Under the pieces are notes generated by a model that saw only the letters and a program-made list of their open reading frames with translations, was not told where the DNA came from and did not search any database. The position numbers and the translations under genes were made by a program. This document shows, piece by piece, positions 43,432 to 44,643 of a DNA stretch of 64,000 bases. Source of the DNA: Vicinamibacterales bacterium (lineage in GTDB: Bacteria > Acidobacteriota > Vicinamibacteria > Vicinamibacterales > JAMQPK01); assembly GCA_963784045.1 (NCBI GenBank), contig CAWAPZ010000005.1:330433-394432 (forward strand), given 5' to 3'. The stretch's first letter is position 1; every line of letters begins with the position of its first letter.

Positions 43432-44643
43432 ATGCCGGTCGTCTTTGTTCACGGTGTGAACACCCGCAAGAGCGAGCCCGGGTACGACGCGCGTGTACTT
43501 ATGACCGAGCGGTTCCTGCGCGATCACCTCGCTGGGGTCTCTCTCGGCGGAACGACCGTAAAGACGTGGTCGGTTATGTTCCCCTACTGGGGCGACCTCG
43601 CCACCAAGTTTGCCTGGAACATGGCCTCACTGCCGAGCGGCGTCGTGAACGCGCTGGGCGGCGGCATCGACGACAACCTGCGCCCGCTCGTCGCTGTGAT
43701 CGAAGACGGACTGGCCGACGCGAAAGCCGCGGGTCAGCAACCGTTGCTGACTCTCGCGACCAAACGCGGTCTTCCCGCGGCGATGGACGTCGTATCCGAC
43801 CTGCTGCTCGAAAGCGCGCCTGCCGCGCAGGCGGCGTCTCTCGTTGACTTTCTGGTTGCCGCGCAACGTTATGCCGATGCGAATCCGCGACCGGCGTGGC
43901 TCTCGACGCTCGCGACCGACGAGCAGTTTTTGAACAAGCTCGCGACCGAAGCCACCCCGGCATCCGCGAACGTGCAGGCACTGGGTGGCGGCGGGGCCGT
44001 GCTCGGCACACTCGCCGCTGCCGGCGCAAAGTTCAAGGCGGCGGTCAAATCGGCCGCTGGCACGATGCTCGATCGATCCGGAGACTTCGCATCGACGAAG
44101 CTCCTCGCCTGGCAGCGGAAATCGCTCAACGCTAACCTCGGGCGATTCTTCGGCGACGTCTTCATCTATCTCGATACCCGAGGCGACACCTCCAAGCCGG
44201 GCGCGATTCCGTCCCTGATCCTTGGCGCGATCGACAAGGCTCGCGCGGACGCTCCCGCCGGAGAACCACTCGTTATCGTTGCCCACAGTCTTGGCGGCGT
44301 CATCACGTTCGATCTGCTGTCGTCCTACCGTCCGGATCTGACCGTCGATTTACTCGTAACCGTCGGATCGCAGGTGTCGCACTTCGAAGAGATCAAGCGA
44401 TTCAAGAGCAGCGATCCCGCCGTTGGTGCGCCGAACCGAGCGTCCACGCCGCCCAATATCCTGCGGTGGATCAACGTGTTCGATGAAGTCGACATCTTCG
44501 CGTACGCCTGCGAGAAGGTCTTCGATCGTGTGGTCGACTTCTCGTACGACACGAAAACGTACGTGGTGAAGTCCCACGGCGCGTACTTCGAACAGGACCG
44601 CTTCTACGCGCGCCTTCGCGCGCGGGTCGACCAGCTGCCATGA
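43432..44643 (+). CDS. Alpha/beta-hydrolase (lipase-like) with large internal insertion
   Basis: Oxyanion VFVHGV; PYWGD; nucleophile elbow AHSLGG; VTVGSQ; WINVFDEVD; SHGAY; no signal peptide. Confidence 0.85.
   Translation: MPVVFVHGVNTRKSEPGYDARVLMTERFLRDHLAGVSLGGTTVKTWSVMFPYWGDLATKFAWNMASLPSGVVNALGGGIDDNLRPLVAVIEDGLADAKAAGQQPLLTLATKRGLPAAMDVVSDLLLESAPAAQAASLVDFLVAAQRYADANPRPAWLSTLATDEQFLNKLATEATPASANVQALGGGGAVLGTLAAAGAKFKAAVKSAAGTMLDRSGDFASTKLLAWQRKSLNANLGRFFGDVFIYLDTRGDTSKPGAIPSLILGAIDKARADAPAGEPLVIVAHSLGGVITFDLLSSYRPDLTVDLLVTVGSQVSHFEEIKRFKSSDPAVGAPNRASTPPNILRWINVFDEVDIFAYACEKVFDRVVDFSYDTKTYVVKSHGAYFEQDRFYARLRARVDQLP

Follow-up and report, generated by a model that had tools for sequence, protein, structure and literature searches.

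The window analysed here, a stretch of 64,000 nucleotides from a Vicinamibacterales bacterium (assembly GCA_963784045.1, contig CAWAPZ010000005.1, positions 330,433 to 394,432 of the forward strand), carries a three-gene cassette that codes for an alpha/beta hydrolase, a Peptidase C14 caspase and a third protein, g3. The hydrolase contains two matching motifs that bracket a helical insert. This twin motif is conserved across a large protein family and changes in concert at its two sites, the cassette recurs in at least ten phyla, and the hydrolase is homologous to that of a protease–effector module described in Lysobacter. The best-supported reading of these observations is that the caspase cuts the hydrolase twice and thereby activates a zymogen, and we consider this reading probable. 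The relevant features of the hydrolase are as follows (aa, amino acids; A1, our alignment of the hydrolase family; A4, the alignment of Lysobacter-type hydrolases discussed below).

43432–44643, + strand: predicted alpha/beta-hydrolase zymogen, P0001, 403 aa (translation of the open reading frame (ORF), start set by homologues).
43450–43458, + strand: oxyanion-strand motif H7-G8-V9, after beta-1; H7, G8, V9 and N10 are invariant in A1.
43642–43665, + strand: site 1, V71-V-N-A-L75|G76-G-G; predicted scissile bond Leu75|Gly76 (43654–43659).
43657–43983, + strand: helical insert, residues 76–184, 109 aa, 11.2 kDa; the predicted excised piece.
43969–43995, + strand: site 2, N180-V-Q-A-L184|G185-G-G-G; predicted scissile bond Leu184|Gly185 (43981–43986).
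44281–44298, + strand: nucleophile elbow A-H-S286-L-G-G, residues 284–289; H285, S286, L287, G288 and G289 are invariant.
44482–44493, + strand: D351-E-V-D354, either Asp being a possible catalytic acid; both are invariant and align with the invariant D240 and D243 of A4.
44575–44577, + strand: His382, predicted catalytic histidine; invariant, aligned with the invariant H275 of A4.

The ATG at 43432 was taken as the true start of the hydrolase because the homologues (396–412 aa) share the N-terminus MP(V/I)VFVHGVN; an upstream GTG at 43099 was discarded. The translation agrees with a sequence-only reading of the window, which had placed the motifs VVNAL75-GGG and NVQAL184-GGGG (both Leu codons ctg, at 43654–43656 and 43981–43983) between the oxyanion strand and the nucleophile: FVHGVN (residues 5–10) lies upstream of both motifs and AHSLGG (284–289, with Ser286) downstream. 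Cleavage at both sites would yield fragments of 8.3, 11.2 and 23.7 kDa, close to the masses estimated at that time. Pfam gave only weak, sub-threshold matches to alpha/beta-hydrolase families, restricted to residues 245–347. An AlphaFold2 (AF2) model built on 30 homologues (mean predicted local distance difference test score (pLDDT) 84.6, predicted template modelling score 0.85) consists of an alpha/beta core, in which a strand formed by residues 2–6 precedes the oxyanion motif, and an all-helical insert spanning residues 81–174. The seven helices of the insert (81–93, 97–100, 104–112, 114–128, 131–150, 155–159 and 163–174; block pLDDT 79–95) confirm the helical character predicted for the segment between the motifs. 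In the same model the pLDDT falls below 50 at site 2 (residues 178–185) and to blocks of 68–70 at site 1, and both sites look like flexible linkers outside the confident core.

A Foldseek search of the PDB with the hydrolase model gave no match at E up to 0.001. The VIA wide structure search matched alpha/beta hydrolases over the whole length of the protein, among them the minimal lipase Lip_vut1 (Z 14.6, root-mean-square deviation 2.7, 164 residues aligned), the DDHD domain of Nir2 (Z 13.6), a carboxylesterase (Z 13.0) and the lysosomal phospholipase A2 LPLA2 (Z 12.8). The invariant residues, the AF2 model and these matches together identify an alpha/beta-hydrolase fold with a Ser-Asp-His triad. 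Since the VIA matches are alpha/beta hydrolases of the lipase type, a lipase, phospholipase or esterase activity is a fair guess from the modelled structure.

The motifs are kept as a pair throughout the family, as the sequence-only reading required. A word-indexed search with the hydrolase gave 475 matches; among the 120 listed, all are about 400 aa long and 53–91% identical to the window protein. An exhaustive search of representatives at 50% identity returned 1659 matches with E no higher than 1e-3; tightening the limit to 1e-10 left 753, and a limit of 1e-30 left 362. We aligned 215 sequences, namely the window hydrolase, 77 proteins from related loci and a further 137 taken from the 150 representatives listed at 50% identity; the protein of locus L067, split over two frames, and 13 representatives shorter than 360 aa were left out. 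Entropy is low at both sites only in P3, P1 and P1′, and the surrounding linkers are highly variable. At site 1, P3 is Glu in 130 and Gln in 42 rows, P1 is Leu in 127 and Phe in 80, and P1′ is Gly in 179; the corresponding counts at site 2 are 133 and 47, 109 and 78, and 196. The motif common to both sites is x-[E/Q]-[A/S/T]-[L/F]|G. The P1 residues of sites 1 and 2 are Leu/Leu in 102 rows and Phe/Phe in 71, against 7 Leu/Phe, 4 Phe/Leu and 31 other combinations. In 200,000 shuffles of the window hydrolase, two ALGGG motifs never occurred (0 cases), and two ALG tripeptides occurred in 17,191 (8.6%), so that a pair of ALG tripeptides alone is unremarkable. It is conservation and co-variation across the family, and not the window sequence by itself, that places the motif pair beyond chance.

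This co-variation was assessed for the 184 rows with Leu or Phe at both sites, on a FastTree phylogeny calculated without the motif columns. For P1 the tree requires at least 25 changes at site 1 and at least 29 at site 2. Supported branches provided 11 independent pairs; in these, site 2 changed with site 1 in 7.7, in the opposite direction in 0.0, and remained unchanged in 3.3 (median sign-test p 0.008, range 0.008–0.07). A weaker trend in the same direction was found for the Glu/Gln exchange at P3 (5.2 with, 0.2 against, median p 0.06). Concerted change of this kind could also be produced by structural hinges at the base of a lid, which are never cut and whose Leu or Phe residues pack in one pocket or against each other while the caspase acts elsewhere. 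In the AF2 model the two sites indeed form the points at which the insert departs from the core and returns to it, size-matched Leu/Phe exchanges are classically seen where two residues touch in a structure, and cleavage within the window family is deduced rather than observed. However, P3 (Glu/Gln) and P1′ (Gly) match between the sites as well as P1, amid unconserved linkers of low pLDDT, which argues for a recognition motif read twice rather than for a packing contact.

The candidate for the protease that would read this motif is encoded directly downstream, followed by g3.

44640–45773, + strand: Peptidase C14 caspase, P0002, 377 aa; its start overlaps the hydrolase stop (ATGA).
45770–46972, + strand: g3, P0003, 400 aa; its start overlaps the caspase stop.

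The caspase belongs to Peptidase C14 by its caspase signature (Pfam PF00656, E 1.3e-8, 35.3 bits, cut-off 21.4; PADLOC caspase, E 1.8e-15) and by the His-Cys dyad GHG ... DAC, formed by His130 (45027–45029) and Cys181 (45180–45182); a match to NCBIfam caspase_w_EACC1 falls below its cut-off. Residues G129, H130, G131, D179 and C181 show no variation among 38 sequences, and a beta-rich tail of about 110 aa forms the C-terminus. The caspase also carries a conserved EDFG (residues 142–145, 45063–45074). In 39 of 65 caspases this segment matches the substrate pattern [EQDN]-x-[LF]-G, and its Phe does not vary with the P1 type of the partner; this element may be structural, a pseudosubstrate or an autoprocessing site.

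A locus scan with one genome per species recovered 78 hydrolase loci in Acidobacteriota, Nitrospirota, Verrucomicrobiota, Gemmatimonadota, Proteobacteria, Actinobacteria, Cyanobacteria, Bacteroidota, Planctomycetota, Chloroflexota and other phyla. According to tblastn with the window proteins, a P0002-like caspase follows the hydrolase directly in 69 of the 78 loci and g3 is present in 62, whereas g4, the gene downstream of g3, and the divergent gene upstream of the hydrolase occur in none; the conserved unit is therefore hydrolase–caspase–g3. The overlapping stop and start codons and the 69 loci mark the caspase as an adjacent, co-inherited partner, and the window's own genome has one copy each of hydrolase and caspase. 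Searches of the neighbouring genes with Pfam, PADLOC and NCBIfam gave no match to the gasdermin family, the conserved partners of the caspase being the hydrolase and g3. A prediction of the 1:1 complex of caspase and hydrolase (alignments A2 and A1) scored 0.18 and 0.01, the mark being 0.32, and weighs on neither side.

At the 77 loci whose hydrolase could be used in the alignment, the presence of the twin motif ([LFMY][GAS] at both sites) was compared with that of a P0002-like caspase ORF.

Twin motif present: caspase ORF found at 59 loci, not found at 2.
Twin motif absent: caspase ORF found at 8 loci, not found at 8.

The two loci with the motif and without a caspase ORF are L024, which lies at a contig end, and L066, which has a tblastn caspase match missed in ORF extraction. 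Among the eight loci with a caspase and without the motif, six have QAQG[L/I][G/D] at site 2 (in one of these the alignment is gapped at site 1 as well), one shows an alignment gap only and one has Asn at P1′. The eight loci with neither motif nor P0002-like caspase ORF include three with other proteases. Locus L060 carries upstream a 1464-aa EAD1-trypsin-STAND-FGE-sulfatase protein (L060:3548-7942(-)). Locus L064 carries a divergent C14 with a TCAD2 match and a NACHT-FGE protein (L064:4834-10752), and L073, whose site 1 reads LW[KR][KR], has a different, more canonical C14 upstream (L073:6483-7904). At the remaining five, all Melainabacteria-type loci, no protease was found. The suggestion that the motifs co-vary with their caspase is thus borne out for the presence of the motifs, which tracks the P0002-like partner, whereas the corresponding comparison with individual caspase residues lacked power.

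The six loci with QAQG[L/I][G/D] at site 2 (L013, L014, L016, L017, L020 and L026) form one subclade. The alignment puts Gln at P1 in these sequences, and Q-G-[L/I]|[G/D] recurs two residues downstream. The motif is apparently displaced by two residues, and the cut site would seem to have slid accordingly in this subclade.

The closest described system is that of Lysobacter capsici AZ78, where, according to a recent preprint, LcHydrolase, an alpha/beta hydrolase, is split by LcCaspase at Arg73|Gly and Arg117|Gly into fragments of 8.1, 4.7 and 19.8 kDa (Evans et al., bioRxiv 2025.11.14.688446). The preprint reports that Escherichia coli is killed by the N-terminal piece together with the C-terminal one or by all three fragments, single fragments being harmless, that this toxicity requires the exact junctions, and that R|G is kept in 161 homologues. 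Profile A1 was also searched against the 43 genomes of the genus to which the genome with locus L007 belongs. Besides the copy in the L007 genome itself, only weak matches were obtained, and one of these led to locus L089, where a 660-aa caspase fusion is followed by a 295-aa hydrolase with the sites IVR73|G and IER117|G and predicted fragments of 8.6, 4.9 and 19.6 kDa. A search for relatives of this hydrolase gave 3868 matches, 120 of them listed. The 30-sequence alignment built round it (A4), in which [R/K]|G is kept at both sites, served as a stand-in for the published LcHydrolase sequence.

Comparison of A1 with A4 by hhalign establishes the sequence homology of the two families. The local alignment, which covers the Ser/Asp/His half, has a probability of 98.1 (E 7e-14) and the global alignment one of 99.0 (E 3e-17). 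The first 100 residues alone give 95.7 (E 9e-9) and place L75 on R73 and G76 on G74. The nucleophile elbow of the window hydrolase aligns with HSLG[ST] of the Lysobacter-type family, and the caspases of both families are homologous as well (profile comparison, probability 95.1, E 3e-8). Site 2 is located in the equivalent linker, after the TDEQ/SDEE helix. The hydrolase has two conserved motifs at equivalent places, and it is a variant outside the R|G set because its P1 residue is Leu or Phe and not Arg.

In both families an alpha/beta hydrolase with lipase-like nearest folds adjoins a C14-type caspase and carries, between the oxyanion strand and the nucleophile, two matching motifs ending in Gly, of which site 1 lies 20 residues past PY[WY]GD. 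They differ in that P1 is Leu/Phe and P3 Glu/Gln in the window family, whereas P1 is Arg, or sometimes Lys, in the Lysobacter type. The excised piece also differs (109 aa and 11.2 kDa in the window, 44 aa and 4.7 kDa in Lysobacter), as does the length of the hydrolase, 403 aa with extra helices also after site 2 as against about 295 aa. The window cassette has the order hydrolase–caspase–g3 with a short stand-alone caspase and a separate TPR-like g3, whereas in L089 the 660-aa caspase fusion precedes the hydrolase. Finally, cleavage experiments exist for the Lysobacter pair, while the window family is known from sequence. Two further loci, L090 (7022-8161) and L091 (7372-8496), contain Lysobacter-type hydrolases with degenerate basic-Gly sites beside a clpB-like gene. 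A crude motif filter applied to ORFs of at least 250 aa detected no caspase-like ORF in the 16-kb stretch of either locus, and these hydrolases may be orphaned or decaying effectors.

The sequence-only reading had also stated that some bacterial caspase-family proteases cut Leu|Gly bonds. This is upheld by the Runella gasdermin, which a CHAT protease cuts after Leu247 at a Leu-Gly pair described as essential (Johnson et al. 2021 preprint; published 2022); this site has been noted as a surprise. The Runella system resembles the scheme proposed for the window cassette in that a caspase-family protease activates a death effector by cutting Leu|Gly within an exposed loop. The effector is, however, a pore-forming gasdermin with one cut near its C-terminus and not a hydrolase with two predicted cuts, and the protease is a Roc-COR-CHAT protein, whereas that of the window is a Peptidase_C14 by Pfam and not a CHAT protease. 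Another zymogen cut twice, each time behind a hydrophobic residue (Ile133, Ile233), is VcMBL of the VcMBL/VcAvs2 pair. According to the preprint, it is a DNase of metallo-beta-lactamase fold, its protease is a trypsin-like serine protease carried by a STAND sensor, and all three of its fragments are needed (bioRxiv 2025.11.14.688446). Lipases gated by a lid or propeptide, such as the propeptide form of Bacillus licheniformis BlEst2 and the capped mycobacterial monoglyceride lipases, share a helical cap over the active site, and lid enzymes of the BlEst2 and monoglyceride lipase types are among the VIA structure matches (Z 12.1). They differ from the window hydrolase in having no dedicated caspase partner and no twin internal cleavage motifs.

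These comparisons bear on the alternatives to double cleavage. The view that the motifs are uncut hinges is further weakened by their disappearance where the P0002-like caspase is absent and by the fact that the equivalent site in the homologous Lysobacter family is a reported cleavage site; we regard it as unlikely. A slightly less likely alternative is that the caspase reads the motif and cuts at another bond within it, for instance with Glu/Gln as P1 and Leu/Phe-Gly on the primed side. Glu/Gln is conserved about as much as Leu/Phe, and animal caspases are well known to cut after acidic residues, as Johnson et al. (2021) also state. Nevertheless, the alignment of L75-G76 with R73-G74 points to the reported R|G bond, the Runella enzyme is described as cutting Leu|Gly, and the invariant Asp179 near the active site poorly suits an acidic P1. 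The least likely of the three, that the released 109-aa piece is the active agent or that cleavage switches the hydrolase off, the hydrolase being a carrier or regulator, could draw on the well-folded insert (pLDDT 79–95) with its invariant P104, F140, P154, W156 and D163, but neither the triad nor the oxyanion motif varies within the family, so that hydrolase catalysis is under selection, and the Lysobacter N- and C-terminal fragments are reported to be toxic without the middle piece whereas single fragments are not.

Several observations nevertheless weigh against double cleavage at the predicted bonds. The sequence-only reading had placed both sites in flexible linkers, and the low pLDDT at both agrees with this, but the model gives site 1 the form of a short helix (72–75) and not of a loop; the preprint says that the Arg73 site of LcHydrolase lies in a helix (bioRxiv 2025.11.14.688446). 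When the middle region alone was aligned, the correspondence of site 2 with R117 was not recovered (E 0.041, probability 1.3), R117 falling about five residues from L184. Leu and Phe are mixed between the sites in 11 of the 184 sequences, so that the protease would have to accept both, and Ala or Ser occurs at P1′ in some sequences. The four-residue pattern of the sites also fits D354-I-F356-[A/S] (DIFA, residues 354–357, 44491–44502), conserved in 72 of the 78 hydrolases and presumably a buried core strand with the catalytic acid; the pattern alone is therefore not diagnostic of a cut site. On the side of the caspase, the invariant Asp179, two residues ahead of the catalytic Cys, aligns with the Asp of the MALT1 LDMC motif. 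The LDMC Asp helps to form the acidic S1 pocket in Arg-specific paracaspases and metacaspases, and a basic (Arg/Lys) P1 specificity is typical of bacterial and plant C14 members. Asp179 would thus seem to resemble the Arg-specific relatives and is naively unexpected for a hydrophobic P1, though the substrate P1 that we infer is Leu/Phe. Mutual information between caspase columns and P1 type pointed to columns 189, 232, 258 and others as candidates, and a tree-aware comparison over the 65 paired caspases had too few events, with 4 changes and 2 independent pairs, to link caspase residue and P1 type.

The third protein of the cassette gave no family match in library scans, which included a local Pfam copy without a match to PF27295, and its model gave no match in a Foldseek search of the PDB at E up to 0.001. 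The nearest Atlas clusters (feature similarity 0.96–0.97) carry PF27295 Y4kD_C. The AF2 model of g3 (pLDDT 89.1) shows two beta-sandwich domains and a helical repeat (residues 223–368) that is TPR-like, with VIA Z up to 9.9, a range in which non-specific matches between helical repeats can arise. At related loci, the ORF of g3 extends into pentapeptide repeats (L035), EF-Tu GTPase domains 1–3 (L052:10329-12806), DUF2278 with the lamin-tail domain LTD (L065) or an LCM methyltransferase (L067); these are candidate fusions, read from ORFs that run on without a stop. In L034, where g3 was not found at the locus, the caspase is fused to an NB-ARC/STAND-TPR module. This fusion pattern fits a putative role of g3 as a sensor or regulator. 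We rejected cleavage sites within g3, because DPSLG and DVSLG of the window protein lie in an unconserved stretch, and recurrent columns fitting the pattern were present in only 24 of 56 and 18 of 56 sequences and lie in the helical domain. Likewise, we do not claim a relationship between g3 and the C-terminal half of the Lysobacter-type caspase fusion, the resemblance being at motif level only (hhalign E 0.024, probability 2). The flanking gene g4 (46990–48048, + strand), 18 bp past g3, codes for about 352 aa with an HExxH motif (HETIH), which may point to a metallopeptidase; Pfam, PADLOC and NCBIfam gave no match to it, and its Atlas matches are unnamed clusters only.

In the scheme that we favour, the hydrolase, caspase and g3 would constitute a protease–effector cassette whose most likely role is in abortive infection or conflict. 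In it, the hydrolase would be a latent zymogen of lipase/phospholipase-like fold with the triad Ser286/Asp351 or Asp354/His382. A trigger, probably sensed via g3 and/or the C-terminal domain of the caspase, would lead the caspase (His130/Cys181) to cut the hydrolase at Leu75|Gly76 and Leu184|Gly185 and so detach the helical insert of 11 kDa. The N-terminal fragment (8.3 kDa, with the oxyanion strand) and the C-terminal fragment (23.7 kDa, with the triad) could then rearrange into an active, toxic hydrolase. Cleavage, the exact bonds, activation rather than inactivation, the substrate, the trigger and the role of g3 are all inferred. The initial idea that the caspase excises an autoinhibitory lid may be too simple: since all three Lysobacter fragments together are also reported to be toxic, the breaks in the chain would matter rather than the loss of the middle piece.

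A double-cut hydrolase zymogen is no longer a new kind of effector, because the 2025 preprint reports one; that preprint by Evans et al. was the only publication found in the literature on caspase-activated hydrolases, and the Y4kD literature yielded nothing on the cassette. A Leu/Phe-type family was not found described in our literature search, which covered the preprint without its supplementary homologue lists. What appears to be new is a large sister family with Leu/Phe at P1 and Glu/Gln at P3, its bigger excised helical domain and separate g3, and the repeated concerted retuning of both sites. A more far-reaching and still doubtful proposal is that P0002-like caspases are a widespread C14 clade with a hydrophobic and evolvable P1 preference, that both substrate sites are retuned together at each Leu/Phe exchange, and that g3 is a modular TPR-like sensor hub.

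If double cleavage takes place as proposed, double-cut hydrolase zymogens would extend past the Arg|Gly family to a sister family of 362 clusters (50% identity, E up to 1e-30), and the window caspase would represent a second, independent caspase-family protease with a hydrophobic P1 specificity. The cassette, with three genes in about 3.5 kb, is small. The concerted Leu/Phe switches are a natural experiment for the determinants of the S1 pocket in bacterial caspases. On the more far-reaching proposal, caspase and hydrolase would be a natural protease–substrate pair whose specificity has been re-coded repeatedly. Such changes of specificity might insulate co-resident systems from each other, or help them to escape phage-encoded decoys or inhibitors.

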